Of a stretch of DNA of 64,000 bases, positions 14,435 through 64,000 are shown in pieces. The notes beneath the pieces were generated by a model. It was not told the DNA's origin. It did not search any database and saw only the letters and a list, made by a program, of their open reading frames with translations. The translations under genes and the position numbers were made by a program. The DNA is taken from NCBI GenBank assembly GCA_903928015.1, contig CAIYPF010000143.1, positions 66,980-130,979 on the forward strand. The letters are read 5' to 3'. Numbering within the stretch: position 1 is the stretch's first letter; every line of letters starts with the position of its first letter. Source of the stretch: an uncultured Gammaproteobacteria bacterium (GTDB lineage: Bacteria; Pseudomonadota; Gammaproteobacteria; Pseudomonadales; UBA5518).

Positions 14435-14612
14435 ATGACGCTCGCTCCACGGCTGGCTTGCGGATTCTGGCTGCCGGCAAGAGTCTAGGCTCGGGCCTGG
14501 GCAACAACCTTGTCTTTTTTCTTGCACCCGATTTGTTGCATGAGAAATCACGCCCCTTCCACTCGGGTGATGGCTGGCGCTAGAGTGTCGTGGGCTTCCC
14601 GAATGGCAGGCA

Positions 14613-14915: not shown

Positions 14916-15019
14916 TCCCTGACTCCGGCCTGCCAACGCCGCAGGCCACAGCACCACCGCATCCCGTGCGCAATCGTCGTGCGCTGCGGTCGACCCGGAA
15001 CCGTAAGGAGCAACAGCCC

Positions 15020-44819: not shown

Positions 44820-44933
44820 AGAATGGACATCGTATGAAAGCCCGTGCGGAGTACCGTCGGGCGGCGCGAGCCTAGCACAGTGATATCCTGCGATGACAAT
44901 CAAAAGACTGGCAACTCTGGACGCGTGGCCCTC

Positions 44934-47900
44934 ATGAAAAAGCTGCTTCTGGCGACCTTGCTGATCGCCCCTCCTTCCCTCTGCTCCGCAGATCCGGCAG
45001 AGCGGCCCTGGGACGTCTCAGCCCCACCCTTGGCTCTGCGCGAAATCCCGATCGACGTCGACCAGGGCACCTGGATGAACATCGATCTGAGCCCCGATGG
45101 CTCCCGCATCGCCTTCGACCTGCTCGGTGACATCTACGTGATGCCCTCATCGGGAGGCACGGCCACCCGCATAGCGGAGGGACTCCCGCTCGAGATGCAA
45201 CCCCGCTTCTCGCCCGACGGCAAACGCATTGCCTTCACCAGCGATCGAGCGGGCGGCGACAACATCTGGCTGATGAACGCGGACGGCAGCGACAAGCGAC
45301 AACTCACACACGAGGACTTCAGGCTCCTGAACGCCCCCGACTGGAGCCCCGACGGCCGCTTCATCGCGGCGCGCAAGCACTTCACGACCGAGCGCTCGCT
45401 GGGCACCGGTGAGATTTGGCTCTACCACGTCGGTGGCGGCTCCGGGGTCCAATTGGTGAAGCGGCAGAGCGAGGCACTCCAGAAGGAGCTGGGAGAGCCC
45501 GCCTACTCCGCGGATGGCGGCTCGCTCTTTTATTCGAGAAACACCACACCCGGCCCCATTTTCGAATATGCGCAGGACTCCAACGACGAGGTCTTCGGAA
45601 TCGAGAAAATCGATCTGGCAACGGGCGAGGTAAGTCCGGTCGCTGGTGGTGCCGGTGGCGCAGTACGGCCCACACCGTCCCCGGACGGCCGCAAGCTCGC
45701 GTTCGTGAAGCGCGAGCGCGGCGTGTCCGCCCTCTTCGTGCTCGATCTTTCATCAGGAAAAAAGACCCGCCTGTTCGCGCCGCTTGATCAGGACATGCAG
45801 GAAGCCTGGGCCGTGCATGGCGTCTACCCCGACATGGACTGGACGCCGGACTCGCGGAGCGTTGTGTTCTGGGCGGGCGGCAAGATCCACCGCGCCGGGC
45901 TCGATGGCAGCCAGACGGAGATCCCCTTCCGCGTCCGGGATACCCGCAGCATCGTCGACCCACCTCGCCCCCGCGTCGACGTCGCACCCGAGCACTTCTC
46001 CACGCGCATGGCGCGCCACGCCGACGTGTCCGCGGACGGCAGCCAGGCCGCGTGGGAGAGTGTCGGCAAGATCTGGATCAGACACCTTCCCGATGGAGAG
46101 CCTGCACGGCTCACGCACTCAGGTGATGGGGAGCTGGAACTCTTTCCTTCTTTCTCACGGGATGGCAAACGCCTTGCCTTCGTGGGCTGGACCGACTCTG
46201 GACTCGGACAGGTGAAGATCGTCTCCTCGTCGGGTGGCGGCATCAAACAGATAACGCAGGAACCCGGCCATTACCGACGGCCGCGTTTTTCTCCGGACGG
46301 AAAACTCGTGGTCTTCGAGAAGGGCAAGGGCGGGAAACTGCTCTCCGATGCATGGTCGCAGACCTCGGGCGTCTTTCGGGTGCCGGCTGTGGGCGGCGCA
46401 GCCACGCGTGTCAGCGCCGATGGCAGTTTCCCGCACTTCGGCGAGAGCAATGACCGCGTATACACGACCGTGACGGGGGAGCCCGGGCAGCAGTTGCGCA
46501 GCACCGACCTGAACGGCCAGAGCCCGCGCGTGCACGCAAGCGGCGAGATGGTGTCGGAGTATCAGGTCTCACCGTCCGGGGACAACGTGGCTTTCCGCGA
46601 CAACTACGCGGCCTGGGTGATGCCCCTCTTGCCCGGACCGCAGTCGATCGCGGCCGGCGCAGATGCCAAGGCAGTACCGGTGACGCGTGCGAGCGAGGGC
46701 GGCATAGGCTTCATGTCCTGGCGCGCAGACGGCAAGCATCTCGACTGGACGCTCGGCCCCACCCTCTACACCGCAGCTCTCGCGGAGATGATTCCGACCG
46801 CGCCCGCCCGGAAGCCCGCGGGCAAATCCGACGGCTTTGTGCCACCCGCTTCCGGCGTATCACTTGCGGTGACGGTGGTGGCGGAAAAACCCGCCGGTCA
46901 CGTCGCCATCACTGGCGCTCGCGTGGTGACGATGGCTGGTGCGGATGGCGGCATCATCGAGGATGGCGTGATTTTGCTTGATGGCCCGCGCATCGCTGCA
47001 ATAGGCCCTCGCGACAGCTTCAAGGTGCCTGCCGACGCGAAACTCGTCGATGCCTCGGGCAAGACCATCCTGCCCGGCTTCATCGACGCACACGCGCACG
47101 GGCCGTTCGGCGATGACGACATCGTGCCGCAGCAAAACTGGTCGCTGATCGCACACCTTGCCCTTGGCGTAACGACCATACACAACCCGTCCACGGTCTC
47201 GTCCGAGGCGTTCGAGGCCGCCGAACTGCAACGCGCCGGACGCCTTCTGGCGCCACGCAGCTTCTCGAGCGGGGAGATTGTCTACGGCGCGCGAGCACCG
47301 GGCCTCTATGCGGCGATCGACTCCTACGAGGGCGCCCTCGCACACGTGCGCAGGCTGAAAGCCCAGGGCGCGCTCTCGATAAAGAACTACAACCAACCCC
47401 GACGCGAGCAACGCCAGCAGGTGGTTGCGGCAGCGATCGCAGAGGGAATGGAAGTGGTTGCCGAAGGCGGCTCCCTGTATACGCAGGACCTCACGATCAT
47501 CGCCGACGGAAACACGAGCCTGGAGCACAACATCCCGCAGCGTGTGCTCTACGAGGATGTTCTTTCGTTCTTCTCGCAGACGAAGGTTGCCTACACACCA
47601 ACGCTGGTGGTGAGCTTCGGCGGCCTGGGTGCCGACCCCTACTGGCGTCAGGCAACGGATGTCTGGAGGCACCCCATACTCTCGCGCCATGTGCCGCCAC
47701 ACATCCTGCAGCCAAAAAGCGTGCGACGCGTGAAGGCGCCGGAAGAGGATTTTGAAGAGCAGTACATCGCACGGGAAGCAGGCAAGCTGGCAGCGCGGGG
47801 CGTGATCGTGAACACGGGCGCACACGGGCAGGAAGAAGGGCTCGGCACCCACTGGGAACTCTGGTCCTTCGTGCGCGGAGGCTGGACGCCACTGGAGGCA

Positions 47901-48137
47901 CTGCGCGCAGCGACGGTGAACCCGGCACGGCATCTGGGCATGGATGCGGACATCGGCACGCTCGAGAAAGGCAAGCTGGCCGACCTGCTGATCCTCGACG
48001 CAAACCCGCTCGATGACATCCGCAACTCCGACAAACTGAGCGGCGTGATGCTGAACGGGCGGCTCTACGACCCCCTGACAATGAACGAGCAGATCACCGG
48101 CAACGCGCGGCGTGCGCCTTACTACTGGGAGCCGTGA
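44934..48137 (+). CDS. Periplasmic TolB-like beta-propeller fused to amidohydrolase-superfamily domain
   Basis: It has a signal peptide (MKKLLLATLLIAPPSLCSA). Repeated PD40-like units appear (SPDGSRIAF, SPDGKRIAFTSDR, SPDGRFIAA, SPDGRKLAF, SRDGKRLAF, SPDGKLVVF). The C-terminal metal-hydrolase motifs are GFIDAHAH and VNTGAHG. I trimmed the start from the track's 44844. Confidence 0.8.
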   Translation: MKKLLLATLLIAPPSLCSADPAERPWDVSAPPLALREIPIDVDQGTWMNIDLSPDGSRIAFDLLGDIYVMPSSGGTATRIAEGLPLEMQPRFSPDGKRIAFTSDRAGGDNIWLMNADGSDKRQLTHEDFRLLNAPDWSPDGRFIAARKHFTTERSLGTGEIWLYHVGGGSGVQLVKRQSEALQKELGEPAYSADGGSLFYSRNTTPGPIFEYAQDSNDEVFGIEKIDLATGEVSPVAGGAGGAVRPTPSPDGRKLAFVKRERGVSALFVLDLSSGKKTRLFAPLDQDMQEAWAVHGVYPDMDWTPDSRSVVFWAGGKIHRAGLDGSQTEIPFRVRDTRSIVDPPRPRVDVAPEHFSTRMARHADVSADGSQAAWESVGKIWIRHLPDGEPARLTHSGDGELELFPSFSRDGKRLAFVGWTDSGLGQVKIVSSSGGGIKQITQEPGHYRRPRFSPDGKLVVFEKGKGGKLLSDAWSQTSGVFRVPAVGGAATRVSADGSFPHFGESNDRVYTTVTGEPGQQLRSTDLNGQSPRVHASGEMVSEYQVSPSGDNVAFRDNYAAWVMPLLPGPQSIAAGADAKAVPVTRASEGGIGFMSWRADGKHLDWTLGPTLYTAALAEMIPTAPARKPAGKSDGFVPPASGVSLAVTVVAEKPAGHVAITGARVVTMAGADGGIIEDGVILLDGPRIAAIGPRDSFKVPADAKLVDASGKTILPGFIDAHAHGPFGDDDIVPQQNWSLIAHLALGVTTIHNPSTVSSEAFEAAELQRAGRLLAPRSFSSGEIVYGARAPGLYAAIDSYEGALAHVRRLKAQGALSIKNYNQPRREQRQQVVAAAIAEGMEVVAEGGSLYTQDLTIIADGNTSLEHNIPQRVLYEDVLSFFSQTKVAYTPTLVVSFGGLGADPYWRQATDVWRHPILSRHVPPHILQPKSVRRVKAPEEDFEEQYIAREAGKLAARGVIVNTGAHGQEEGLGTHWELWSFVRGGWTPLEALRAATVNPARHLGMDADIGTLEKGKLADLLILDANPLDDIRNSDKLSGVMLNGRLYDPLTMNEQITGNARRAPYYWEP

Positions 48138-51758: not shown

Positions 51759-51834
51759 TCCGCCTTAGCTCAGTTGGTAGAGCAATTGACTGTTAATCAA
51801 TGGGTCGCTGGTTCGAGCCCAGCAGGCGGAGCCA
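51759..51834 (+). tRNA. tRNA-Asn (anticodon GTT)
   Basis: I folded it by hand. The acceptor stem is TCCGCCT/AGGCGGA followed by G-CCA, and the D-arm is GCTC-AGTTGGTA-GAGC. The anticodon loop is CTGTTAA, and the T-arm is CTGGT-TCGAGCC-CAGCA-like. Confidence 0.92.
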
Positions 51835-51855
51835 AATTCCGGAGTCATGTCCAAA

Positions 51856-51881
51856 GGGTTGCGAAAGCAGCCCTTTTTTTT
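51856..51881 (+). terminator. Intrinsic terminator after tRNA-Asn
   Basis: The structure is GGGTTGC-GAAA-GCAGCCC followed by 8 T. Confidence 0.65.
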
Positions 51882-52056: not shown

Positions 52057-52941
52057 ATGAAGACCGTCGTTGCACTGCTCATCATGATCGCTGCCGCCGC
52101 GGGCCATGCCGACCCTGCAACGTGCTGGGATGAACTCGTCTTCGAAGCGGGCAATGACTGGGCCACCGCGTCGAGCACGCTGCACTTCGGGCAGACGGAC
52201 GCGATGGCGACAAAGCTCGATCTCACGGGCGCGCCCTCAAAGGGACGACTGATGCCACAGGGCGCCTCGATAGGGGTGATCAGCGCCAGTGTCACGGCGA
52301 TGCGCAGCCACGGAGAACTGCAGACCTGGTTTGATCCGGTAAGTGGCGCTGCCCTCCAGAGCAGGCGCATCGGCTCCGGGCGTGACAGCCGGATGAAGAC
52401 ACACAGGTTTCTGCAGACGGGGGTCTGGCGAGAGAGGCGCACACCGGACGCCAGCACCCAGACCACCGCGCCCGAGACGTGGCCGCTTCGCTCTGCCGCG
52501 CAACTGAGCTATCCGCCCGACGTGAAGCGGGAGCCTGTGATCACGCCGCTCATGTTGCTGTCCCGGGCATCGGCGCTGGCGCTGCGCACCAAGCCCGGGA
52601 AGCTCGATTACGTAGTGCTGACCGATACTCAGTTATATCGCGTGGTGCTGGAGTCACGTCCCGACACCGTCATGCAGGCAAACGTGCAACTGGAGCCTGG
52701 CGCGAACGGGGCGGGGATACACGGCGAGCGCACCGTCCGCAGGGTCGATGTGCGACCACACCTGCTGGGTGAAGCACCCGAGGAGGAACCGTTCAGCCTC
52801 ATGGAACTCGAAGGCGAGACCGCATTGATGATCGACCGTGAGACGGGGCTTCCCCTGCAGATCCAGGGCCGGTGGATGCGCGTGGGCACTGTGACCGTAC
52901 CCCTTACGCGCGCAAGACTCCGCAGCGGATGCCGGCCGTGA
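52057..52941 (+). CDS. Secreted/periplasmic hypothetical protein (first gene of the envelope-lipid locus)
   Basis: It has a signal peptide (MKTVVALLIMIAAAAGHA). I recognise no motif with confidence. Its stop codon overlaps the start region of the next gene. Confidence 0.5.
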   Translation: MKTVVALLIMIAAAAGHADPATCWDELVFEAGNDWATASSTLHFGQTDAMATKLDLTGAPSKGRLMPQGASIGVISASVTAMRSHGELQTWFDPVSGAALQSRRIGSGRDSRMKTHRFLQTGVWRERRTPDASTQTTAPETWPLRSAAQLSYPPDVKREPVITPLMLLSRASALALRTKPGKLDYVVLTDTQLYRVVLESRPDTVMQANVQLEPGANGAGIHGERTVRRVDVRPHLLGEAPEEEPFSLMELEGETALMIDRETGLPLQIQGRWMRVGTVTVPLTRARLRSGCRP

Positions 52942-53897
52942 GCAAGAAGTTAGGCGTCATCAGCAATCCCCACAGCGGCCGCAACCGCCGGATGCTGGGA
53001 CATCTGCGCAACATTCTCGGAGCAGCCGGTGGCGTGCACCACGAAGTGACCGCGAGCGTGTCCGAGATTCCCGCTGCGTTGTCTCGTATGGCAGCGGCGG
53101 GAGTGGACGTAGTGGCAGTGAACGGTGGAGATGGAAGCGTCGCGCTGGTGCTGCAGGCCCTGCTTTCAGGGGATTCTCCCTTCGCGGCACAACCTCTGCT
53201 GTGCGCCCTTCCGGGCGGCACGACCAACGTGACGGTGGGCGACGTAGGTATCCGTGGCGCTCTGGACAAGGCTCTTCTCAAGCTGCTCGCCTGGCGCAAC
53301 GGCCGACTCGAGGCGCAGGTGATGGAGCGCGCGGTCATAGGGGTCAGGAATCGCGATGGCGAGGTTCTTGGGTGTGGGCTGGTATTCGGCGCAGGAGCCG
53401 TGGTGACCGGCATCGAATACTGGCAGGAATCGGTGCGCGCGCGTGGAATGCGCAGCGAGTACAGTTCAGGCGTTGCCATGACGCGCACCGTCTGGGGAAT
53501 GCTGCGAGGCCACGAGCGCTTCGCAGCCCCCATCCGCATGCGGCTGGATCTGCCCGGTGAAGCGCCGCTGGAGGCGGATTTCATGCTGCTTGCGGTAAGT
53601 ACGCTTGAGCGGCTTTTTCTGGGTATACACCCCTTCTGGGGCTCAGAGAGCGGCTCGCTACGGGTGACCGCCATCGAGCGCGGAGCGAGAGGATTTCTCG
53701 GAGCCCTGCCCTCCATACTGCAAGGGAAGTCTCCATCGCATGCGCGGAGGGACGGCTACCACAGCGCTCGCGTCGATGCATTCACCCTGGACTTCCACGG
53801 GAGCTACACGATGGACGGCGAACTCCACGCGACGCAGGCTGATGACGCACCGCTTCGCATCTTCACGGCGGGGCACGCCCGCTTCCTCCGGATCTGA
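52929..53897 (+). CDS. Diacylglycerol-kinase-catalytic-domain lipid kinase (YegS/LCB5/BmrU family)
   Basis: The N-terminus LGVISNPHSGRNRR..., the segment VVAVNGGDGSVALVLQAL (the GGDG motif) and LPGGTTNV are typical of the DAGK_cat fold. The start is ATG 52929, or GTG 52938 in a GTGA overlap with the upstream stop. Confidence 0.75.
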   Translation: MPAVSKKLGVISNPHSGRNRRMLGHLRNILGAAGGVHHEVTASVSEIPAALSRMAAAGVDVVAVNGGDGSVALVLQALLSGDSPFAAQPLLCALPGGTTNVTVGDVGIRGALDKALLKLLAWRNGRLEAQVMERAVIGVRNRDGEVLGCGLVFGAGAVVTGIEYWQESVRARGMRSEYSSGVAMTRTVWGMLRGHERFAAPIRMRLDLPGEAPLEADFMLLAVSTLERLFLGIHPFWGSESGSLRVTAIERGARGFLGALPSILQGKSPSHARRDGYHSARVDAFTLDFHGSYTMDGELHATQADDAPLRIFTAGHARFLRI

Positions 53898-53899
53898 CC

Positions 53900-54826
53900 A
53901 TGCATGACTTCGGCCCCCTGTTCCAGGGCGACGAAAAAGCGAACGCCGCGATTGAGGCACTGCTGGACGCACTGCGACGCCGGCATGGCGCTTCGCTGCG
54001 GAGCCTGATCTTCTACGGCTCCTGTCTGCGAAACGGCAACCTTGAAGACGGCCTGGTCGATCTCTACGCCATCGTCGACAACTATCGTCACGCCCACGGC
54101 AGTTCAATATCGGCTCTGACCAACCACCTGCTGGCGCCCAATGTGTATTACGTGGAGGCCGAATCCGGAGGACGGAAAATTCGCTGCAAGTACGCTGTTT
54201 TTTCCGAGCGGGAACTTGGGAAAGGCGTGTCTGCACGCCGCACCGAAAGCTATCTCTGGGGAAGGCTTTGCCAACCCGTAGCCATCGCCTGGGCCGCCGA
54301 CAACGCGGCACTTTCAACGGCTCGGGCTGCGCTAAGGCAGGCCAGCATCACGTTCCTGGACGAAGCGCTGCCACTGGCCGCGGACAAGGGCTATGTCCGG
54401 GAGATCTGGGCTACGGGGCTCGGTCTCAGTTACGCGACCGAGCTGCGCAGCGAGAGCCCCGACCGGGCCATCGGCATAGCGGATCAATCTGCCCTGCAAC
54501 TGATCGAGGCCACCGCCAGCGTGGCCCCTTCATGCCGCTGGCCACTGCATGTGGGCGGCGAGTTCTACACCTGCGTGATACCAGAAGATGAACGCCGGCG
54601 GGCAGCGCGCAAATGGGCGAGGCGCCGGGTGCAGGGTAAAGTCCTGTCGGTTTTGCGCCTGCTGAAAGCGCTTTTCACGTTTGACGGCGGACTCGACTAC
54701 ATCGCGTGGAAACTCGAGCGGCACACCGGAAGGCCCGTCGAGATCCCGCCTCACGTCCGCAGATTCCCCCTGCTCTTCGTGTGGGGCTTCATGTGGAAGC
54801 TCTATCGTCAGGGCTACTTCCGGTGA
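53900..54826 (+). CDS. Tam41/Mmp37-like nucleotidyltransferase (putative phosphatidate cytidylyltransferase type)
   Basis: The sequence LIFYGSCLRNGN..LVDLYAIVDNY...NVYYVEAESGGRKIRCKYAVFSEREL...SYLWGRLCQPVAI parallels the YGS.., D-x-D region, KYGV.S and Y.AGRLQKPV blocks I remember from Tam41. It starts 2 nt after the kinase gene's stop. Confidence 0.6.
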   Translation: MHDFGPLFQGDEKANAAIEALLDALRRRHGASLRSLIFYGSCLRNGNLEDGLVDLYAIVDNYRHAHGSSISALTNHLLAPNVYYVEAESGGRKIRCKYAVFSERELGKGVSARRTESYLWGRLCQPVAIAWAADNAALSTARAALRQASITFLDEALPLAADKGYVREIWATGLGLSYATELRSESPDRAIGIADQSALQLIEATASVAPSCRWPLHVGGEFYTCVIPEDERRRAARKWARRRVQGKVLSVLRLLKALFTFDGGLDYIAWKLERHTGRPVEIPPHVRRFPLLFVWGFMWKLYRQGYFR

Positions 54827-55869
54827 GCGCGCCCCGCATCTGGCTGGTACTGGGCGACAAGCCCGGAGACAACGCGCAGGTGGAAATCGTTGCCGATGCC
54901 ATCGGCCTGCCGGTGGAGCGCAGGCGCGTGATACCGAGGGCCGAATGGGTTCTGGGCAAACCACGTGTCGAGGCCTCGATCGCGCATCTGGATCCCGAGC
55001 GCTCGGATCGACTCGAAGCCCCATGGCCCGACCTCATCCTGACCATCGGCAGGCGACCGAGCATGGCAGCGCTGTGGATCAGGGAACAGTCGGGGGGACA
55101 CAGCAGAATCGTACTGTTCGGACCGCCAAAGCGTTGGCCCGAACGCTATTCGCTGATCGTGGCGCCCGCGCAATACCGGCTGAACAGCAACAGCAACCTG
55201 TTCCCCATACGATTCCCGCTCATGCGGAGCAACGCTGCAGACATCGAAGCCGCGCGCGCCACATGGAATGAGCGCCTCGCACAACTGCCGCGCCCTATCA
55301 CCGCGCTTCTGGTAGGAGGCCAGACAAAACCCTATCGGCTGGATGCGGACTTCGCCCGTGAACTGGCGGAACGCGCAGCAGCTCTCGCGCACCCGGGATC
55401 GCTCTATGTAAGCACGAGCAGGCGAACCCTTCCGGGCGCTGTGGCTGCGCTGGAGTCCGCATTGCCGGGCGGCACTCCGTTTTTCCGCTGGTCGGCGGAG
55501 GCCGCGGACAACCCCTATCTCGGCCTTCTGGCTCTGGCGGACCGATTCATCGTAACGGGCGACAGCATATCGATGATGGTCGAGGTTGCCCGTCTGGGAC
55601 GGCCGCTCGCCATTGCGGAACTGCCGTACCGCTCACGTCTTGCAGGCTGCATGCACGGCTGGGTGAATAGCGAAGAAGGATTGCCAGCAGCACTCCGCAA
55701 GGCGGGCTTTACGCGTGGCGCCCGCGATCTTTCCGCAATGCACAGGGTCCTGTACCACGAGGGGCTCGCCAGGCCACTGGACGCCGGCTTCCCTGCTGCG
55801 GGGGCCGGAGCCCTGGAGGACGAACTCCCGCGCGTCGCTGCTGCCGTACGGGCGCTGTTGCAACTCTGA
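54823..55869 (+). CDS. ELM1-family protein (Mito_fiss_Elm1 / COG3660; predicted GT-B-like nucleotide-sugar enzyme)
   Basis: The GTG start sits in a GTGA overlap with the upstream stop. The N-terminus IWLVLGDKPGDNAQVEIVADAIGLP matches the W.l.g.k.GdnnQ..LA..LG signature of bacterial ELM1 proteins. It is paralogous to 58750..59898. Confidence 0.65.
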   Translation: MSAPRIWLVLGDKPGDNAQVEIVADAIGLPVERRRVIPRAEWVLGKPRVEASIAHLDPERSDRLEAPWPDLILTIGRRPSMAALWIREQSGGHSRIVLFGPPKRWPERYSLIVAPAQYRLNSNSNLFPIRFPLMRSNAADIEAARATWNERLAQLPRPITALLVGGQTKPYRLDADFARELAERAAALAHPGSLYVSTSRRTLPGAVAALESALPGGTPFFRWSAEAADNPYLGLLALADRFIVTGDSISMMVEVARLGRPLAIAELPYRSRLAGCMHGWVNSEEGLPAALRKAGFTRGARDLSAMHRVLYHEGLARPLDAGFPAAGAGALEDELPRVAAAVRALLQL

Positions 55870-55961: not shown

Positions 55962-56702
55962 ATGCTCAAGAAAATCCTCAAACGTACCCGCAACATCCTG
56001 CGCTACGGCCTGAGCGAAGAAGGTCGTGCCCGCAAGCGCGCCGACAAGGCCGCCGTACGCGACAAGCGCTTCGAGTCAGGCCTGTGGGAGCGTGACGGGG
56101 AACTCGCTCGGCGCAAGTACGCCTCCTACGAGGAGTACGTCGACCATCAGGCGGCCAAGTTGGACAACATCGTCCACCGCCTCGAGGAAACACGAAGTGA
56201 AGACTACGCGGACTTCGTCCGCCGCTTCGGGGGTTGCGCCCCGTTGCGCCGCGCTCGCAACGTGCTTTGCCTGGGTGCAAGGCTGGGCACGGAGGTCCAG
56301 GCCATGCACAGCCTCGGACTCTTCGCAGTGGGGATAGACCTCAACCCCGGCCCCGACAACCTCTACGTGGTCAAAGGCGATTTCCACGCCATCCAGTTTC
56401 CCGACGGCTCGGTCGATGCGGTCTACACGAACGTCTTCGATCACGTCTACGACATGGCGAAGATGATCGCGGAAATCGAACGCATACTGCCCACTGGAGG
56501 ATTGCTGGTGGCAGATGTGTTGAAGGGCTTCGAGGAGGGCTTCGTGCCCGGCGCCTATGAGGCCACGCACTGGAAGAACGTCGACGCGCTGCTCGCCGAG
56601 ATTCTTCGCCTCGGGCATTTCGACGTGATCGAACGCAGGGATCTGGGACAGGTTCGGCGCGACCACTGGATACAGTTGGTCCTGCAGAAGCAGGCGGCGT
56701 AG
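55962..56702 (+). CDS. Class I SAM-dependent methyltransferase
   Basis: Motif I is VLCLGARLGTEV and the post-I region is AVGIDLNP. Motif II/III reads FPDGSVDAVYTNVFDHV. GGAG lies 6 nt upstream of the ATG. Confidence 0.8.
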   Translation: MLKKILKRTRNILRYGLSEEGRARKRADKAAVRDKRFESGLWERDGELARRKYASYEEYVDHQAAKLDNIVHRLEETRSEDYADFVRRFGGCAPLRRARNVLCLGARLGTEVQAMHSLGLFAVGIDLNPGPDNLYVVKGDFHAIQFPDGSVDAVYTNVFDHVYDMAKMIAEIERILPTGGLLVADVLKGFEEGFVPGAYEATHWKNVDALLAEILRLGHFDVIERRDLGQVRRDHWIQLVLQKQAA

Positions 56703-56802: not shown

Positions 56803-57741
56803 ATGCAGACCGTTCTCAAGAAGATCACCCGCTTCGTGATCCTCGGCCTCTGCTTCTGGCTGCCCCGCGAGCGCAAGATCCGGCTCGAGCGATGGCTTCG
56901 CGGCAAGGAAGAGTTCCGTAAACTCGAACTCGCCGACTGCGTGATCGTCTCGTTCGGCAAGAGTGGCCGGACATGGCTGCGCGTCCTCCTCTCCCGCTTC
57001 TACCAGGTGCGCCACGGGCTTTCCGAGCGTCACCTGATCGGCTTCGACAACCTCAACAGCCGCAACGCGGCAATCCCCCGAATTTTCTTCACGCACGACA
57101 ATTATCTGAAGGACTACACCGGCCACATCGAGGACAAGCGGGACTACTACGGCAAGAAGGTCATCCTGCTTGCGCGCAACCCCCTCGACACCACGGTCTC
57201 CCAGTTCTTCCAGTGGAAATTCCGGATGCGTCCCGGCAAGAAATCCCTGAACGCCTATCCGGAACATGGCGCGGAGGTCGAACTCTTTCCGTTCATGACA
57301 GACCCTTCTGCCGGCCTGCCCAAGGTGATCGACTGGCTGAACCTTTGGGCTCAAGAGGCGCCGAAGTGCAAGGATTTCCTGTTGGTGCGCTACGAGGACA
57401 TGCGTGCCGACACCGCAGGCACCCTGTCAAAGATCGTGGAGTTCATTGGTACGCCCGGTACAGCGGAGCAGCTTCAGGCCGCAGTGGATTTCGCGTCGGT
57501 CGAGAACATGCGAAGCATGGAACTCAAGCGCACCTTCTGGCTCTCGGGCAGCAGGATGGTAGCCAAAGACAAGGACAACCCGAACTCCTTCAAGGTCCGC
57601 AAAGCCAAAGTCGGGGGCTATCGCGATTACTTCAATGACGCGGAAGTCGGCGAACTCGAACAGATCATGGCGCGGGATCTCGCGCCCTTCTACGCTTTTC
57701 CAATGGAAGACAACCGGCCTGCGGGTTCACACGCCGGATGA
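56803..57741 (+). CDS. PAPS-type sulfotransferase-domain protein with hydrophobic N-terminus
   Basis: The 5'-PSB-like loop is SFGKSGRTWLRVLLS and the 3'-PB-like region is LLVRYEDMRADTAGTLSKIVEFIG. The C-terminal motif is RKAKVGGYRDYF. The N-terminus carries a hydrophobic stretch, FVILGLCFWL. Confidence 0.8.
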   Translation: MQTVLKKITRFVILGLCFWLPRERKIRLERWLRGKEEFRKLELADCVIVSFGKSGRTWLRVLLSRFYQVRHGLSERHLIGFDNLNSRNAAIPRIFFTHDNYLKDYTGHIEDKRDYYGKKVILLARNPLDTTVSQFFQWKFRMRPGKKSLNAYPEHGAEVELFPFMTDPSAGLPKVIDWLNLWAQEAPKCKDFLLVRYEDMRADTAGTLSKIVEFIGTPGTAEQLQAAVDFASVENMRSMELKRTFWLSGSRMVAKDKDNPNSFKVRKAKVGGYRDYFNDAEVGELEQIMARDLAPFYAFPMEDNRPAGSHAG

Positions 57742-57791: not shown

Positions 57792-58739
57792 ATGCAGAAC
57801 TGTGTATTCATCCAGACCAACCACAAGCAATACACCGGAGCCCTCGTCGCGCAGCACGCGCTGAGGCGCTACTCCAGCCACAACGACAAGTTCGACATAC
57901 GCATCATCGACGCCCGGGACTACCCGTACTTCGATGCACGTGAGGGTCAGAGCTACCTTCGGGACGGCGTGAAGCGTGTCTGGCTTAACGATGACCTTCA
58001 ATCCTTCACGCTCACACGGTTCATGCCCCCGGAGTTGATGGGCTTCCAGGGCCGTGCGATCGTTATCGATCCTGATGTTTTTGCCTGTGCGGACATATGG
58101 GACCTGTTCTCACGCGACATGGAAGGAAAGGCGATCCTCTGTCGCCCGCGATCAGGCACCAAGGGCCTGATCGACAAGTGCCTCGCGACCAGCGTGATGC
58201 TCCTCGACTGCGCAAAACTCCGCGACTGGAAGGTCGAGGAACGCTTCCAGCGCATGTTCGATTTCAGCTTCGACTACATGGACTGGATCTGCCTCAAGAC
58301 CGAGGCCTCAGGCACGGTGGGGCTCTTCGAGAACGAGTGGAACGACTTCGACAAACTGAGTCCGGCCACGCGGATGCTCCACACGACGCGCCGCCGCACA
58401 CAGCCCTGGAAAACCGGACTGCCGGTGGATTACCGCATCGCCGAACGCTTCCGCCTATTCCCGCCCGCCGCATGGCTGATGCGCGCGCGGCGACATCTCT
58501 TCGGTGAATACGGGCTGATGGGAAGTTACAAGCAACACCCGGACATCAACCAGCAGCATCTGTTTTTCGGGCTTCTGAAGGAGTGCGTGGCCAACGGCAG
58601 CGTGACGGAAGCGTTCCTGCGGGAGGAAATGGCCAAGAACCACGTCCGGCACGACGCCTTCGAAATACTCGAGCAGACGCCGGACCTGCCTCCCGCACCG
58701 ATGCACCCCTTGTCGAGCACGGTATCCCGCGCTGCCTGA
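57792..58739 (+). CDS. Glycosyltransferase family 8-like protein (tentative)
   Basis: GGAGGA lies upstream of ATG 57792. The start is NCVFIQTNHKQYTGALVAQHALRRYS. The segment SFTLTRFMPPELMGFQGRAIVIDPDVFACADIWDLF shows a DxD-like IDPD in the position seen in RfaI/J-type GT8 enzymes. Confidence 0.5.
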   Translation: MQNCVFIQTNHKQYTGALVAQHALRRYSSHNDKFDIRIIDARDYPYFDAREGQSYLRDGVKRVWLNDDLQSFTLTRFMPPELMGFQGRAIVIDPDVFACADIWDLFSRDMEGKAILCRPRSGTKGLIDKCLATSVMLLDCAKLRDWKVEERFQRMFDFSFDYMDWICLKTEASGTVGLFENEWNDFDKLSPATRMLHTTRRRTQPWKTGLPVDYRIAERFRLFPPAAWLMRARRHLFGEYGLMGSYKQHPDINQQHLFFGLLKECVANGSVTEAFLREEMAKNHVRHDAFEILEQTPDLPPAPMHPLSSTVSRAA

Positions 58740-58749
58740 GTAGAGCGTC

Positions 58750-59898
58750 TCAGTTGCCGGAGGCATCTCCTGGAGGGTGGCCGGCGAAGAGCCCGGCCAC
58801 CGCCATCGCGGCAGCCATTGTGTCGTCATGCCGCATCTCGAGGCTGGCGCGCGCTGGCCCCGCGGAGCCCAGCCATGCCGCTCTCCCCTGCTTCACCAAT
58901 CCCTGCATCATGCCCTCGGCATCACGCCGCATGCGCGCTGGCCCTAATGTCGCTGCGAGCCGGTGCATAAGCGCATCGAACCGGTAGTTGTAGCGCCTCT
59001 TCCACCAGTCCGGCCCATCCTCGAGGCTGAAGAGATACACCGGCCGCCCGGTGAATTCTGCCTCGGCAACCATCGAGACACTGTCCGCTGTCACCACGAA
59101 CTGCTCCGCAATGGCCAGGTATCCGACATAGGGGTTCATCTCTCGTGGACCACCCCAGCGATGTGCGAGGACCGGCACGTCGATCGTGCCGAGAAAAGCA
59201 TCCAGCACTCCCACTGGTGTGCGCGCGCTGTCGGTAACCAACACCGAGCCACCGCGGGAGCGCGCGAGCCCGTTGACCATCTGACCGAGGAGGCGCGCCT
59301 TCGAGGGGGTGAATACATACGCACCGCTATTTCCGCCGAGCAAAACCGCAGTACGCGGCAAAGGCAGGGCGGAGAATTCCTGCTGCCAGCGTCTTCTTCC
59401 GGCAGAAAGCGTGCTCTCGTTCAGCCGGTGCATGGGCAAGGCATTCATCAATACGTTCGGAAACTCGGCGATGGGATACTGCGGAGTGGCCACCACCAGA
59501 TCGAAACAGCCCGGGTCAGCCCAAGGTCGCCCGACGTGCACGATGCGCGCCAGTCCTCCGGATTGGCGTTGTATCCACCGCGCCACAGGCTCGTTGCGGC
59601 GACCAGAACTGATCACCAGATCCGGCCACGGGGCCTGAAGCGGACTCGAGGCGGACCTGTCGATGCCCGCCAGCGTGACACCCAGCATCCGGTTGGCGAG
59701 CAACTCCCACGGGCGGAATACGATGTGCTTTTCCTCGCAGGGCCAGCCGAGGCGGTCGGCCAGGGCCAGCACCTGTGTGTTGTCTCCCGCCTTGCGCCCG
59801 AGCAGGAGCCAGACACGGGTGGCGGGAGGACGCTGGAAAAGGTCTTCGCGCACGGTGGATGAAGCTCCTCGCGCGATGGCGGGTGGACGATACTGCAT
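58750..59898 (-). CDS. ELM1-family protein, second paralogue
   Basis: The segment VWLLLGRKAGDNTQVLALADRLGWP...APWPDLVISSGRRNEPVARWIQRQSGGLARIVHVG aligns by eye with 54823..55869 (APWPDLILTIGRRPSMAALWIREQSGGHSRIVLFG). The start is uncertain: ATG 59898 lies only 14 nt from the divergent lptF ATG, and GTG 59853 is an alternative. Confidence 0.65.
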   Translation of the reverse strand: MQYRPPAIARGASSTVREDLFQRPPATRVWLLLGRKAGDNTQVLALADRLGWPCEEKHIVFRPWELLANRMLGVTLAGIDRSASSPLQAPWPDLVISSGRRNEPVARWIQRQSGGLARIVHVGRPWADPGCFDLVVATPQYPIAEFPNVLMNALPMHRLNESTLSAGRRRWQQEFSALPLPRTAVLLGGNSGAYVFTPSKARLLGQMVNGLARSRGGSVLVTDSARTPVGVLDAFLGTIDVPVLAHRWGGPREMNPYVGYLAIAEQFVVTADSVSMVAEAEFTGRPVYLFSLEDGPDWWKRRYNYRFDALMHRLAATLGPARMRRDAEGMMQGLVKQGRAAWLGSAGPARASLEMRHDDTMAAAMAVAGLFAGHPPGDASGN

Positions 59899-59912: not shown

Positions 59913-60986
59913 ATGCTAATCGAGCGTTACGTCACGGCGGAGATTGCCCGGCCCTTCGCTGCAGGTCTGGGCATTCTTGTCACGGTCTTCGTGACATTCA
60001 CCGCAGCCCTCAAACTCTCGGATGCAGCCGCCGGAGCCATTGCACCTGCGGCCGTGATGCAACTCGTGATACTGAGCACCCTTGTCGCGCTCGAAGTCCT
60101 AGTACCCTCTACTCTCTACATGGCCATCCTGTTTGCCATAGGCAGACTGCACCGGGACTCCGAGATGGCAGCACTCGCTGCGGCTGGAATAAGTGAACGA
60201 AGGGTACTGCGCGCGGTGATGCTTGTAGGCCTCTTGGCGGCGCTGCTGGTCTGGGCCCTGTCGGTGCACGTGCGGCCGTGGGCATATGCCAAGAGCTACA
60301 CGCTCGAGCAACAGGCGATGAGCCGCTTCGATCTGGCGAACATTCGCCCGGGCAGCTTCGTGGATCTGGGCCAAGGCGGCTATGTCCTTCAGGCGCAGGA
60401 AGTAGATCCCTCGGCTTCGGAACTGCGTTCGGTGTTCGTGCAAGTCACGCGCGGACGGCATACCCAGCTGATTTCAGCCGCGCGCGCGCGGGTACTCGAC
60501 CTGGATGCAGAGGGAGCGCGCGCGGTTGAGTTTGTCGACGGCTACAGCTACATGCTCGACGGTCAGGGAAATCAGGACGTCAGCATGCGTTTCGGTTCGT
60601 TCCTCGTGAGGTTCCCTCCCGAGGAGCGGATGCAGAAGTTCCGGCGCAAGGCGATAGACACACACACGCTCGGCACGTCACTCGAACCCAAGGACATTGC
60701 GGAGTACCAGTGGCGCACCACCACGCCGCTGGCAACGCTGTTGCTCGCCGTGCTCGCCGTTCCTCTTGCCCGCTCAGGCCCCCGCCAATCACGCTTTGGC
60801 ATCTTCGTGGTCGCGCTGCTCGCATACCTGCTTATATTCGTCGCGAGTGCAGTGGTGCGTAACTGGATCGAGAACGGCGATATGCCCCCATTCCCGGGTC
60901 TGGTCGTGGCTTACCTGCCCGCGTTTGCGGTGACGGCCTGGCTCCTGCGCTTCCCCAACACCAGAGCCGGATGGTGGCGCAGGTGA
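59913..60986 (+). CDS. lptF: LPS export ABC transporter permease LptF
   Basis: The N-terminus MLIERYVTAEIARPFAAGLGILVTVF matches the LptF/YjgP pattern. A large periplasmic beta-jellyroll insert lies between TM3 and TM4. lptG follows it. Confidence 0.85.
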   Translation: MLIERYVTAEIARPFAAGLGILVTVFVTFTAALKLSDAAAGAIAPAAVMQLVILSTLVALEVLVPSTLYMAILFAIGRLHRDSEMAALAAAGISERRVLRAVMLVGLLAALLVWALSVHVRPWAYAKSYTLEQQAMSRFDLANIRPGSFVDLGQGGYVLQAQEVDPSASELRSVFVQVTRGRHTQLISAARARVLDLDAEGARAVEFVDGYSYMLDGQGNQDVSMRFGSFLVRFPPEERMQKFRRKAIDTHTLGTSLEPKDIAEYQWRTTTPLATLLLAVLAVPLARSGPRQSRFGIFVVALLAYLLIFVASAVVRNWIENGDMPPFPGLVVAYLPAFAVTAWLLRFPNTRAGWWRR

Positions 60987-62080
60987 TACTGGGGCGTTAT
61001 CTGGGACGCGAATTGTTCCGTGGCTGGCTCACCGTGTCCGCTGCGCTCTCGGCCATGTTCGCGCTGCTGCAATTGGTGGAGGAAGGCGACAACCTGAGCG
61101 ATCGGTACCGTTTCCTGGACGCCCTCGCATACGTTGCCCTCAGCACGCCACAACGCGTGCTGGAACTGGCACCGGTTATTGCCGCACTGGGAACGCTGAT
61201 GGCCTTTGCGACATTGAGCCGCAACAGTGAACTCGTGGTGATACGGACTGCGGGGATATCCACCCGTGGCTTGTTGCGCATGGCGCTGGCGCCCACAGTA
61301 TTGCTGGTGCTCACGCTCGCCATGGCGAGCGAATTCATGGTGGCACCCATGCAACACCACGCCGAAACCCAACGCACGGTGCTGCGCAGCGGCAATCTGG
61401 ACCTGCTCGCAGGCAAGGGACTTTGGTCCCGGACGGGGCGGCAATTCCTGAACGTGCGAGAGCTTCCAGCGGGGCAGTCTCCTGAGGGCATATCACTCTA
61501 CGAATTCGACGAAAGCGGCAGGCTGCTGCGCGCCATAGAGGCGGAGCGAGCGGAGCTCATGCCCGACAGGCGCTGGCGACTCGTGAACGCACGCATCAAG
61601 GACTGGAGCGGAAACACCCGCCGCAACGAATCCTCTGCCTCGCTTGACCTGGGTCCGTTCTGGTCCGCCACCGAACTTCCCGCGCTCGGGCAATCCACCG
61701 CCGCGATGTCACCACGAGCGCTCTATCGCTACGCGGAACACTTGCGCCTCACGGGACAGGACGATCGCGACGTGCGCATGGCCTTCTGGGAGAAAGCCAC
61801 TCTCCCGCTGTCTGCCGCATCCATGGTGCTGCTCTGCGCGGTTCTGGGGATCGGATTCGGCTCCACCCGGAGCACGGCGTTCGGCTGGAGAGTGCTGGCA
61901 GGCGCGGTGATCGGAACCGGCTTCTATCTGCTCACCCGCATACTGCATACGGCGGGAAACATTCTGGGTCTGCAGCAGGCGTTGGTGGTGCTGTTGCCCA
62001 TCGCTCTTGTGGTCGCGCTTTCAGCCCTTATAGCCGCGCGCACACGCGGCCCACGCCGAGCCCGGGAGCCGCGCGCATGA
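60971..62080 (+). CDS. lptG: LPS export ABC transporter permease LptG
   Basis: The N-terminus ILGRYLGRELFRGWLTVSAALSAMFALLQLVEE matches the LptG/YjgQ pattern. It overlaps lptF by 16 nt. Confidence 0.85.
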   Translation: MVAQVILGRYLGRELFRGWLTVSAALSAMFALLQLVEEGDNLSDRYRFLDALAYVALSTPQRVLELAPVIAALGTLMAFATLSRNSELVVIRTAGISTRGLLRMALAPTVLLVLTLAMASEFMVAPMQHHAETQRTVLRSGNLDLLAGKGLWSRTGRQFLNVRELPAGQSPEGISLYEFDESGRLLRAIEAERAELMPDRRWRLVNARIKDWSGNTRRNESSASLDLGPFWSATELPALGQSTAAMSPRALYRYAEHLRLTGQDDRDVRMAFWEKATLPLSAASMVLLCAVLGIGFGSTRSTAFGWRVLAGAVIGTGFYLLTRILHTAGNILGLQQALVVLLPIALVVALSALIAARTRGPRRAREPRA

Positions 62081-63789
62081 GATTGATGCTGAGCTTTTAC
62101 CGGAGCTATCCGCTGCGGACACTGCTGACGCTACTGGCAATGTCGGTCGCCGGACTCGCGGAGGGCATCGGGCTCTCGGCTCTGCTCCCGTTGCTCAACA
62201 TCGCGATCGAGAGCGAAGCGGGATCCTCCTCGCCCTTGCCCGCCACGACCAGCAATGGTTTCGAGCAAGGCGTGCGAGAGGCGCTGGCCTGGGCAGGAAT
62301 CACTCCGGACCTGAACAACCTTCTCGTGCTGATCGTGGCCGCACTTACCCTCAAAAGCCTGCTGCTCCTCGTAGCGCAGGTGCAGGTGGGCTACAGCTCG
62401 GCGAGGCTCGCCACCGATCTGCGACTCGAACTTCTGCGGGCCATCCTTCTCAGCCGCTGGTCATACTTTCTGAACCAACCCGTGGGCAAGCTGACCAATT
62501 CGCTTGCCACCGAGGCATCACGCGCGGCAGAGGCATTCCAGAACGGCGCGACCGCCCTCACGTTCCTGTTCCAGGCGCTGGTCTATGGCGCCGTCGCGCT
62601 GGCCGTTTCCTGGCGCGCGACACTCGTGGGGATCATTGCCGGCGCAATCATCATCGGATTCTCCCACTCGCTGGTGCGGATCACGAAGAAAGCGGGCAAG
62701 AAACAGACGTCGGTGCTGCTGTCGCTGATGTCCACCATGACAGACACTCTCGCCTCGGTTAAACCGCTGAAGGGCATGGGCAGGGAGCATCTCGCGGGGT
62801 CGGTACTGTCCATGGAAACCGGCCGTCTCAACCAGGCGCTGGAGCGTCAGGTGCTGAGCAGCGCCTGGCTGGATTCCATGCAGCAGATCCTGTTCGCGGT
62901 GATCATCGCAGGCGGCATGTACGTGGCACTGGTCCGTAACGGGATGCCCCTCGCTACCGTGATGGTGCTGGTCGTGGTCATCGGCCAGATGGTCGCACTG
63001 TTAGGCAAGGTCCAGAAGCAGTACCAGAAGTCGACCATCGGCGAGAGCGCCTACTGGTCGATGCGCGCGACCATCGCCGAGGCCGCGGGCGAGGAAGAGG
63101 AACTGCCCGCGGGAGCGATCCCCTCGATAGGCACTGGCCTGAGCCTCGAACATCTGGGGTTCCGCTACGGCGAGAGGACGGTTCTTGACGACGTTGGACT
63201 GGAAATTCCGGCGGGCTCGCTGGTGACCCTGATAGGCCCCTCGGGCAGCGGGAAGACCACGATAGTGGACCTCGTGATCGGACTGCTGCGCCCTGACTCC
63301 GGACGGGTGATGATTGGTGGCGTCCCGCTCGCGGAGACCGACATTCGTCAGTGGCGTCGCGCCATTGGCTATGTGCCCCAGGAGACCTTGCTGCTCCACG
63401 AGAGCATTGCGCACAACGTGAGCCTCGGAGATCCGGAAATCCCCGTCGTGGATATCGAGCAGGCGTTGCGGGCCGCAGGTGCCTGGGATTTCGTAAGCGC
63501 TCTTCCGGGAGGCATGGACGCGAGCGTGGGCGAGCGGGGAGGAAAGCTCTCCGGAGGACAGCGACAGCGCGTCGTGATAGCGCGCGCTCTGGTACGCAAG
63601 CCGCAACTGCTGATCCTTGACGAGGCGACCAGCGCCCTGGATGGCGAAAGCGCGGAGGCTGTACGACAGACACTCCAGCAACTCCGGGGATCGCTCACGA
63701 TTCTGGCTATCACGCACCAGGAATTGCTTGTGGATATAGCGGACCGCGTCTATCGCCTGGATAACGGCCGGGCGCAGCTTCAAGGCTGA
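62077..63789 (+). CDS. ABC exporter, fused permease/ATPase half-transporter (MsbA-like type I exporter)
   Basis: ATGA overlaps the lptG stop codon. A 6-TM N-terminal domain is followed by Walker A (GPSGSGKTT), the signature LSGGQRQRV, Walker B (LLILDEATSALD) and an H-loop (ITHQ). Confidence 0.9.
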   Translation: MRLMLSFYRSYPLRTLLTLLAMSVAGLAEGIGLSALLPLLNIAIESEAGSSSPLPATTSNGFEQGVREALAWAGITPDLNNLLVLIVAALTLKSLLLLVAQVQVGYSSARLATDLRLELLRAILLSRWSYFLNQPVGKLTNSLATEASRAAEAFQNGATALTFLFQALVYGAVALAVSWRATLVGIIAGAIIIGFSHSLVRITKKAGKKQTSVLLSLMSTMTDTLASVKPLKGMGREHLAGSVLSMETGRLNQALERQVLSSAWLDSMQQILFAVIIAGGMYVALVRNGMPLATVMVLVVVIGQMVALLGKVQKQYQKSTIGESAYWSMRATIAEAAGEEEELPAGAIPSIGTGLSLEHLGFRYGERTVLDDVGLEIPAGSLVTLIGPSGSGKTTIVDLVIGLLRPDSGRVMIGGVPLAETDIRQWRRAIGYVPQETLLLHESIAHNVSLGDPEIPVVDIEQALRAAGAWDFVSALPGGMDASVGERGGKLSGGQRQRVVIARALVRKPQLLILDEATSALDGESAEAVRQTLQQLRGSLTILAITHQELLVDIADRVYRLDNGRAQLQG

Positions 63790-64000
63790 TCGAAAAGCGC
63801 CCGGACTCTGTGCACGGCCCGCTCCACGTCCGGCGAAGGCGCCACGCTCCGCAAGTGGTGCTCCTGACCGAGCCAGACCGCCCTGCCCTCCGACATCATC
63901 CTGTCGTGCACGAGGGAGATGTCACGACCGAGCCTGCGCGGCCCGCAGCGCAGCAAGAATCGGTAACCCATCGTGTCGGGACTGTGATCGCGCGCGACAG
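63780..64000 (-). CDS. 3' end of an unidentified gene that continues beyond the window
   Basis: The minus-strand frame is open from the window edge (VARDHSPDTMGYRFLLRCGPRRLGRDISLVHDRMM...ALFDQP*). Its stop overlaps the ABC gene's end by 10 nt. I recognise no motif. Confidence 0.35.
   Translation of the reverse strand, partial: VARDHSPDTMGYRFLLRCGPRRLGRDISLVHDRMMSEGRAVWLGQEHHLRSVAPSPDVERAVHRVRALFDQP

Follow-up and report, generated by a model that had tools for sequence, protein, structure and literature searches.

We report a computational analysis of a 64,000-nt stretch (the window; all positions are window coordinates) of contig CAIYPF010000143.1 from an uncultured gammaproteobacterium, in which genes for a lipid kinase, a Tam41-like protein, and an ELM1-like protein stand in a row on the forward strand. 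A sequence-only reading of the window had named these families, and the calls hold in Pfam and AlphaFold/Foldseek: a DAGK_cat kinase, a Tam41-fold nucleotidyltransferase, and an ELM1/GtrOC1 protein with the glycosyltransferase fold GT-B. That reading had also proposed that the triad makes a cytidine diphosphate (CDP)-activated lipid without CdsA, with ELM1 as the downstream transferase. Here, we describe the triad as part of a sphingolipid locus that starts at position 52057, spans approximately 21 to 30 kb, and continues beyond the window end (Table 1).

The open reading frame (ORF) 5′ of the kinase, U1, ends in TGA at 52939-52941 (read directly from the sequence), and the kinase frame has two in-frame starts: ATG 52929, and GTG 52938, which forms a GTGA overlap with the U1 stop. 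The kinase stop (TGA 53895-53897) is followed, after a gap of 2 nt, by ATG 53900 of the Tam41-like gene, whose own stop (TGA 54824-54826) overlaps GTG 54823 of the ELM1-like gene in a second GTGA. All three junctions are exactly as first described from the sequence, and public gene calls on the same contig place the starts at 52929, 53900, and 54823 (products of 322, 308, and 348 aa). Neighbors were counted in 81 non-redundant loci, within ±10 kb of the Tam41-like gene. U1 overlaps the kinase in 21 of 27 loci, several with a GCCGTGAGC junction identical to that of the window, which favors GTG 52938 as the true kinase start. The coupling is therefore real, and the chain consists of four genes rather than the three first proposed. 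No family match to U1 was found in Pfam and NCBIfam searches; this predicted secreted protein could be a periplasmic lipid-handling partner.

Farther along the chain, the kinase and the Tam41-like gene overlap or lie ≤3 nt apart at 39 of 75 junctions, and ELM1 directly adjoins the Tam41-like gene in about 12 to 20 loci, tightly in 8, all within one subclade. The position immediately 3′ of the Tam41-like gene is taken by ELM1 in about 14 loci, by a GT2 gene in 10, and by U2 in 4. Coupling had been read as the mark of partners, and for the kinase and the Tam41-like gene the association goes beyond chance (adjacency in 75 of 81 loci, and a gene fusion); the link with ELM1 is real and confined to some clades.

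The kinase translation shows NGGDGS and has the features of CpgB-type kinases (DAGK_cat, GGDG, and no CxxxCxxC; PMC10331486). For CpgB of Caulobacter, which carries the GGDG motif, ceramide kinase activity has been proven biochemically, and sphingolipid synthesis is encoded in nearly all genera that have cpgB (PMC10331486). The window kinase is 33% identical to the kinases of sphingolipid loci in Roseomonas and Pseudomonas and is probably a ceramide kinase.

The Tam41-like protein has 1,059 homologues at E ≤ 1e-3, none named, of which 36 were aligned; about a quarter of the homologues listed have a precomputed match to Tam41_Mmp37 (PF09139). Its AlphaFold model (predicted local distance difference test [pLDDT], 89.4; predicted template modeling score [pTM], 0.87) was searched with Foldseek, and the four best PDB matches were all Tam41 (6ig4_A, 6ig2_A, 7ecd, and 6ig4_B; S. 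pombe and Firmicutes), at E 1.8e-9 to 1.6e-8, with aminoglycoside nucleotidyltransferases (ANT(4′)) next, from E 3.6e-5. By sequence, the family profile finds Tam41 6ig2 at E 0.0011 in an alignment that spans residues 82 to 202 only and sets KYAV, W-G-R-F-x-Q-P, and S-Y-x-x-E-L-R opposite KYGV, GRFQKP, and SYLGDIR of Tam41, motifs that we take to bind cytidine triphosphate (CTP). Residues Y39, G40, S41, D54, K97, R122, Q125, P126, Y178, E181, and R183 are invariant in gamma-, alpha-, and deltaproteobacterial members. The protein has the nucleotidyltransferase and winged-helix fold of Tam41 and appears to keep the G-S...D motif, with one invariant Asp; the sequence-only reading, which depended on this fold and on catalytic acidic residues, is thus not overturned here. 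True Tam41 itself keeps one of three acidic residues and is catalytic (PMC11646218). The C-terminal third (W239-R303) is strongly conserved, basic, and aromatic, and is not matched by anything in the part of Tam41 that aligns.

Inside the 64-kb window, no spt, acp, cerR, FAAL, bCerS, or CDP-alcohol transferase gene was found. The same contig past the window end (L089) carries, 1 to 6 kb on, genes for ACP, Spt, a bCerS-like GNAT protein, FAAL, and a CerR-like reductase; the order after the third ELM1 gene is ACP (80 aa), alpha-oxoamine synthase (395 aa), metallophosphoesterase, NTP_transf_3, GNAT (380 aa), FAAL, a reductase of the short-chain dehydrogenase/reductase (SDR)/epimerase type, and P450. 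The alpha-oxoamine synthase scored 590.7 bits on the NCBIfam serine palmitoyltransferase equivalog NF047599 (cutoff, 500). NCBIfam has no named models for bCerS, CerR, CpgB, or CpgC, so equivalog confirmation was possible for Spt only; the other downstream genes are 41 to 71% identical to their counterparts in reference sphingolipid loci (BLAST). By family, the downstream genes match the published ceramide set (Spt, AcpR, bCerS, AasR, and CerR) together with genes of the CC_1153 and CC_1158 types. That the organism encodes a full ceramide gene set next to the triad is strongly supported, and this set on the same contig places the triad inside a sphingolipid locus.

The P450 gene (L089:20351-21586, about 8.4 kb past the window end) lies directly 3′ of the CerR-like reductase and may encode a lipid hydroxylase. 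Other loci have LpxO-like (Asp_Arg_Hydrox) or 2OG-Fe(II) oxygenases in its place.

Caulobacter has a run of five neighboring genes, cpgA (CDP-alcohol phosphatidyltransferase), cpgB (kinase), cpgC, spt, and acp (PMC9393093). A cpgB deletion mutant has no ceramide-1-phosphate (C1P), and a cpgC deletion mutant keeps C1P and has no ceramide phosphoglycerate (CPG) (PMC9393093; PMC11324152). The Tam41 domain of CpgC was noted in 2024, and homologues have been reported in gamma- and deltaproteobacteria. When the window Tam41-like protein was compared with plasmids by tblastn, 17 replicons were found. On p546-2 of Roseomonas haemaphysalidis, the genes for CDP-alcohol phosphatidyltransferase, DAGK, Tam41-like protein, Spt (pyridoxal phosphate [PLP] aminotransferase), and ACP reproduce the order cpgA-cpgB-cpgC-spt-acp, with LptF/G paralogues, FAAL, and cytidylyltransferases in the vicinity. 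On pPNP1 of Pseudomonas sp. JS425, the order is Spt-ACP-epimerase (CerR)-FAAL...NTase-LptF-LptG-kinase-Tam41-like, followed by a metallophosphoesterase, a 780-aa ELM1/GtrOC1 protein, an Asp beta-hydroxylase, a CDP-alcohol transferase, and a cytidylyltransferase. The window Tam41-like protein is 34 to 36% identical (E 1e-40 to 1e-55) to its counterparts at the site of cpgC in the Roseomonas and Pseudomonas loci. Avin_44330-44370 of Azotobacter vinelandii are the published orthologues, in the same order, of CC_1155/56, CC_1159, CC_1160, and CC_1161 (LptF/G, CpgA, CpgB, and CpgC), and three of the loci that we collected (L030, L051, and L059) show this gene order. The kinase and the Tam41-like protein can, with strong support from gene order and published orthologue tables, be regarded as the counterparts of Caulobacter CpgB and CpgC. 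This correspondence and the embedding of the triad in a ceramide locus make ceramide, rather than diacylglycerol or phosphatidate, the most likely substrate.

The pPNP1 locus (L088, NZ_CP073662.1, 1-17921) places a full synthesis, head-group, and LptF/G cluster on an IncP-type plasmid, beside an IS5 transposase and a class 1 integron integrase. This location suggests that the whole sphingolipid pathway is mobile.

When one genome was scanned for each GTDB species, at least 596 species had a relative; most belong to uncultured Gammaproteobacteria (Halieaceae, Thiogranum, Woeseiaceae, Porticoccus, Salinisphaera, and Litorirhabdus), and Desulfobacterota are also represented. An exhaustive HMMER search gave 1,495 clusters at 50% identity, 576 of them at E ≤ 1e-30. 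The kinase is directly 5′ of the Tam41-like gene in 75 of the 81 loci, and in one 662-aa metagenomic protein, P0291 (L092:4390-6378), the two are fully fused, directly after a CDP-alcohol phosphatidyltransferase; its cluster has two members, on Joint Genome Institute (JGI) contigs of 20 and 60 kb. The expected co-occurrence beyond this genome was thus borne out, and the idea of a kinase that feeds the Tam41-like enzyme its substrate is sound on the same evidence. Other neighbors are ELM1 (40 to 53 of the 81 loci), metallophosphoesterase (38), U2 (31), LptF/G (30 to 31), sulfotransferase (29 to 31), NTP_transf_3 (29), and any ceramide-synthesis marker (29). CDP-alcohol transferase genes occur in 6 loci and never together with ELM1. 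ELM1 and the CpgA-like CDP-alcohol phosphatidyltransferase may be alternative second-step enzymes, yet pPNP1 carries both. Thiogranum loci, including that of the cultured T. longum, combine the ceramide and head-group gene sets in a single stretch, with genes on both strands for CerR, FAAL, bCerS, NTP_transf_3, metallophosphoesterase, kinase, Tam41-like protein, ELM1, sulfotransferases, U2, a second ELM1, and LptF/G.

The ELM1 model (pLDDT, 92.6) has 122 GT-B matches in the PDB at E ≤ 1e-3, and these are generic (SenB, UDP-GlcNAc 2-epimerases, and the lipid glycosyltransferases MGD1 and MurG; E approximately 1e-5, template modeling [TM] score of 0.4 to 0.5). A comparison with GT-B enzymes such as LpxB, which had been suggested along with the triad, therefore gave the fold and no particular likeness to LpxB; the mitochondrial connection once drawn for Tam41 and ELM1 comes down to their names. 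Profiles of ELM1 and U2 had no significant match among PDB sequences, and Pfam and NCBIfam gave U2 merely a weak GT8 hint (E 0.1). U2 is the best-conserved protein of the cluster (68 to 89% identity between gammaproteobacterial families, where the Tam41-like protein has 43 to 57%). Halieaceae carry it in two to three paralogues per locus (U2 paralogues in L039, L045, L056, L063-L069, L078, and L079), beside two to four sulfotransferase paralogues. The 780-aa pPNP1 protein is an ELM1 domain fused to a U2-like domain, which suggests that ELM1 and U2 act together. Locus L001 carries genes for a sulfotransferase and an LpxO-like hydroxylase directly 3′ of the pair, a 3′-phosphoadenosine-5′-phosphosulfate (PAPS) synthase nearby, and no glycosyltransferase, an arrangement that points to sulfation of the lipid itself. 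That ELM1, U2, and the sulfotransferase decorate the same lipid seems somewhat better than an even proposition.

The export genes lie toward the 3′ end of the window (Table 1). The ATP-binding cassette (ABC) exporter reached 249 bits on the NCBIfam MsbA model (cutoff, 602) and is thus not an MsbA equivalog. Whether LptF/LptG are the housekeeping pair was also considered: the window LptF favors the paralogue type, being nearer to the plasmid-borne Pseudomonas LptF (36% identity, 195 bits) than to Escherichia coli LptF (23%, 62 to 70 bits), and the same comparison for LptG was ambiguous. The plasmid paralogues receive the same LptF/G names from PGAP, so passing the equivalog cutoff does not separate canonical from sphingolipid-type pairs. 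LptF2/G2 paralogues in alpha- and gammaproteobacterial sphingolipid loci have been reported to export sphingolipids using LptB, and the window pair is possibly of this type.

Table 1. Features of the sphingolipid locus inside the window and at its upstream boundary
Feature	Position	Strand	Evidence or remark
tRNA-Asn	51759-51834	+	ARAGORN; upstream boundary of operon
Terminator-like hairpin	51853-51876	+	Terminator scan; upstream boundary of operon
U1, 294 aa, N-terminal signal-peptide-like segment, no family	52057..52941	+	Found in 26 to 27 of 81 loci
Lipid kinase, DAGK_cat type, GGDG motif, CpgB-like	52929..53897	+	Pfam DAGK_cat E 4.7e-14; start may be GTG 52938
Tam41-fold nucleotidyltransferase, CpgC-like; conserved basic/aromatic C-terminal region ending in amphipathic helix	53900..54826	+	
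ELMa, ELM1/GtrOC1 family, GT-B fold	54823..55869	+	PF06258 E 9e-52, 176.5 bits (cutoff 27)
Class I S-adenosylmethionine (SAM)-dependent methyltransferase	55962..56702	+	Methyltransf_11 E 3.9e-11; closest relatives only
PAPS-type sulfotransferase	56803..57741	+	Sulfotransfer_1 E 1e-22; GKSGRTW and RNPLDTTVS motifs; PAPS-binding loops present; often several paralogues per locus
U2, 315 aa, may be GT-A glycosyltransferase	57792..58739	+	Invariant D93-P94-D95
ELMb, second ELM1/GtrOC1 protein	58750..59853	-	PF06258 E 3e-58, 197.7 bits (cutoff 27); kept next to LptF
LptF	59913-60986	+	NCBIfam LptF equivalog, 281.3 bits (cutoff 230)
LptG	60971-62080	+	NCBIfam LptG equivalog, 265.9 bits (cutoff 240)
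MsbA-like ABC exporter, transmembrane and nucleotide-binding domains, candidate flippase	62077..63789	+	Pfam; 50 to 59% identity in related loci
ELMc, third ELM1-family gene, 3′ part, cut by window end	63780..64000	-	

The kinase and the Tam41-like protein very likely act on ceramide in the sphingolipid pathway, and the triad as a whole is likely, though with less assurance, the head-group module of a locus for sphingolipid biosynthesis and export. In the mechanism that we propose, the kinase would convert ceramide to C1P, from which the membrane-peripheral Tam41-fold enzyme would, with CTP, form CDP-ceramide and pyrophosphate, in parallel to the Tam41 reaction of phosphatidate and CTP to CDP-diacylglycerol. 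An alcohol acceptor would then displace cytidine monophosphate (CMP), giving a phosphodiester-linked head group, which in this clade may be built into a glycosylated, sulfated one by the three ELM1-type GT-B enzymes together with the DxD protein U2, the sulfotransferase, and the methyltransferase. Caulobacter adds a second phosphoglycerate by CpgA and CpgD, both absent from the window locus. The MsbA-like exporter would flip the lipid, and the LptF/LptG pair would extract it toward the outer membrane. The Tam41 fold of the second enzyme makes a CTP:C1P cytidylyltransferase a concrete, testable mechanism, and we give CDP-ceramide as its product, which carries the logic of the sequence-only reading over from phosphatidate to C1P, a little less than an even chance.

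Several observations weigh against this scheme. The Tam41-like protein scores below the gathering cutoff of PF09139 (E 0.0022; 17.8 bits versus 24), and its model reaches TM scores of merely 0.47 to 0.59 against Tam41 structures. The assignment to CpgB/CpgC is itself drawn from synteny, published orthologue tables, and 32 to 36% identity to proteins in the cpgC position. CpgC is needed for the step from C1P to CPG by a mechanism that papers of 2025-2026 term “unidentified,” a literature search did not find the term “CDP-ceramide,” and CpgB and CpgC suffice for CPG in Caulobacter, so that a separate CMP-displacing transferase is not demonstrably required. Likening ELM1 to LpxB or TagF, which use lipid- or polyol-nucleotide donors, was unsupported, since Foldseek gave generic GT-B proteins only. 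The Tam41-fold protein might instead carry out another reaction on C1P, such as a LicD-like transfer from a nucleoside diphosphate (NDP)-activated acid made by the CofC/MobA-like NTP_transf_3 protein, or be a non-catalytic, lipid-presenting subunit of the kinase. The wording of the literature on CpgC, the single conserved acidic residue, the W239-R303 region, and the frequency of NTP_transf_3 and metallophosphoesterase genes alongside the pair would all fit such a role, yet true Tam41 is catalytic with a single acidic residue too, the shared residues fall in the Tam41 motifs presumed to bind CTP, and Caulobacter without CpgC accumulates C1P, as expected if the enzyme consumes it; we regard a role other than cytidylyl transfer as unlikely, although it deserves to be kept in view. 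Far less probable is the glycerolipid pathway of the sequence-only reading, in which a diacylglycerol kinase makes phosphatidate, the Tam41-like enzyme turns it into CDP-diacylglycerol without CdsA, and ELM1 transfers a phosphatidyl group or a sugar to form a new glycerolipid. Tam41 is a proven CDP-diacylglycerol synthase, as is its Firmicutes homologue, the kinase belongs to the DAGK_cat superfamily, and CpgB has been reported to phosphorylate diacylglycerol besides ceramide in vitro. Against this stand the embedding of the operon among genes for Spt, ACP, bCerS-like protein, FAAL, and CerR-like protein, the position of the pair after genes of the Spt, bCerS, CerR, or LptF2/G2 type in many lineages as well as on two plasmids, the Caulobacter genetics that put the homologous pair on the path from ceramide through C1P to CPG, and an identity to true Tam41 of approximately 14 to 18%. 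The enzyme logic of a kinase feeding a Tam41-like enzyme thus survives, and the lipid first named for it, diacylglycerol or phosphatidate, very probably does not.

Even with the pair working on ceramide, the rest of the block could serve another lipid. ELM1 in bacteria has been reported solely as GtrOC1/14/19/22 of the Acinetobacter outer-core locus for lipooligosaccharide (LOS), where it is conserved, and a literature search did not find a link between ELM1 and bacterial sphingolipids. An O-antigen-ligase/polymerase-like Wzy_C gene lies inside the ELM1/sulfotransferase block of two Thiogranum loci (L016:14087-15472 and L090:16360-18752), with a GT4 gene adjoining in L090; either core genes for lipopolysaccharide (LPS) are interleaved there, or the sphingolipid receives a glycan by ligation in the periplasm. 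Given the Acinetobacter LOS genes and the Thiogranum GT4 and Wzy_C genes, the ELM1/U2/sulfotransferase block could serve LPS instead, a further point against the scheme above. In such a mixed locus, the three ELM1 proteins, U2, sulfotransferase, methyltransferase, LptF/LptG, and ABC exporter would all belong to LPS core synthesis and export, and the GTGA overlap would be mere operon packing. LptF and LptG lie above the NCBIfam LPS equivalog cutoffs, about half of the kinase/Tam41-like loci lack ELM1, and ELM1 seldom stands directly after the Tam41-like gene; Caulobacter, which makes CPG with CpgB and CpgC alone, has no ELM1, so this chemistry does not generally involve ELM1. Conversely, the block has ceramide genes on either side, both in the window contig and in L026, the ELM1-U2 fusion sits within a plasmid-borne sphingolipid cluster without LPS genes, the sulfotransferase and hydroxylase of L001 directly follow the pair with no glycosyltransferase, the window LptF resembles the plasmid paralogue more than its E. 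coli namesake, and LptF2/G2 paralogues have been published as parts of sphingolipid loci. No waaA, GT9 heptosyltransferase, or lpx gene was seen among the annotated neighboring genes and families, many neighboring ORFs being unannotated. We judge a mixed locus rather improbable and retain the reading of one locus serving one sphingolipid. Within that reading, consumption of a CDP-lipid by ELM1 is doubtful.

The remaining window genes are unrelated housekeeping genes (resistance-nodulation-division [RND] efflux, oxidoreductases, methyl-accepting chemotaxis protein [MCP], patatin, beta-oxidation, Phe- and Thr-tRNA synthetases, and uvrB). Among unrelated ORFs, one of 1,097 aa (1,067 aa as called) at 44844-48137, between thrS and an SDR gene, encodes a secreted protein with a Tricorn-like/PD40 beta-propeller and a C-terminal amidohydrolase domain. 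Another, of 1,631 aa at 10961-15856 on the reverse strand, joins thiamine pyrophosphate (TPP)-binding, POR, and DUF6537 domains in a fusion resembling indolepyruvate/2-oxoacid:ferredoxin oxidoreductase, part of ordinary metabolism.

Bacterial anionic sphingolipids can partly replace LPS and are the target of colistin in Caulobacter. The CpgB/CpgC-type pair proves to be very widespread, occurring in at least 596 species, and its two genes are closely coupled and sometimes joined in a fusion; that CpgC has a Tam41 domain and that cpgB is widely distributed had already been published. With ELM1/GtrOC1, U2, and PAPS sulfotransferases present in sphingolipid loci, abundant environmental bacteria are predicted to make decorated outer membrane sphingolipids of a new class, and the uncharacterized ELM1 family gains a context for study. 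The boldest version, which we put forward as a long shot, is that many Gammaproteobacteria of marine waters and sediments (Halieaceae, Thiogranum, Woeseiaceae, Porticoccus, and relatives of the window genome) make an LPS-like glycosylated, sulfated phosphosphingolipid that starts from CDP-ceramide made by the Tam41-fold enzyme, with ELM1 and U2 performing the first transfer onto or from the activated lipid. If true, this would supply the first biochemical function for ELM1/GtrOC1, settle the CpgC step, and add a new nucleotide-activated sphingolipid intermediate.

Set beside known systems, the window protein shares with Tam41/Mmp37 (6IG2, 6IG4, and 7ECD; mitochondrial and Firmicutes CDP-diacylglycerol synthase) its fold, the K-Y-x-V, G/W-R-F-x-Q-P, and S-Y-x-x-D/E-x-R motifs, and probably the G-S...D motif with one acidic residue and a C-terminal membrane-binding helix. 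It differs from Tam41 in its low identity, its sub-gathering Pfam score, its own conserved C-terminal region, and a genomic context of ceramide rather than phosphatidate. With plant mitochondrial fission ELM1 and Acinetobacter GtrOC1/14/19/22, the window ELM1 proteins share PF06258, the GT-B fold, and a link with envelope glycolipid loci; unlike these, the window member lies in a sphingolipid locus and overlaps a Tam41-like gene, and the family is elsewhere fused to a U2 domain. Caulobacter LptF2/LptG2 (CCNA_01213/01214) likewise form an LptF/LptG pair within a sphingolipid locus, whereas the window proteins both pass the LPS equivalog cutoffs of NCBIfam.

The closest parallel is Caulobacter CpgB (CCNA_01218/CC_1160) and CpgC (CCNA_01219/CC_1161), likewise an adjacent pair of a DAGK_cat kinase carrying GGDG and a Tam41-domain protein, in a locus that also has spt, acp, bcerS, cerR, aasR, lptF/lptG paralogues, a MobA-like NTP transferase (CC_1153 type), and a metallophosphoesterase (CC_1158 type). 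Unlike that locus, the window locus has neither CpgA nor a CpgD-type cytidylyltransferase; it carries three ELM1/GtrOC1 proteins, U2, a sulfotransferase, and a methyltransferase, a predicted secreted U1 coupled 5′ of the kinase, and an MsbA-like ABC exporter where Caulobacter has the Wzx-like CC_1166. These differences in gene content lead us to expect a final head group other than that of CPG2. The core pair is thus a member of a known, recently described system, and the combination of ELM1, U2, sulfotransferase, and methyltransferase without CpgA and CpgD is new and predicts a new head group.

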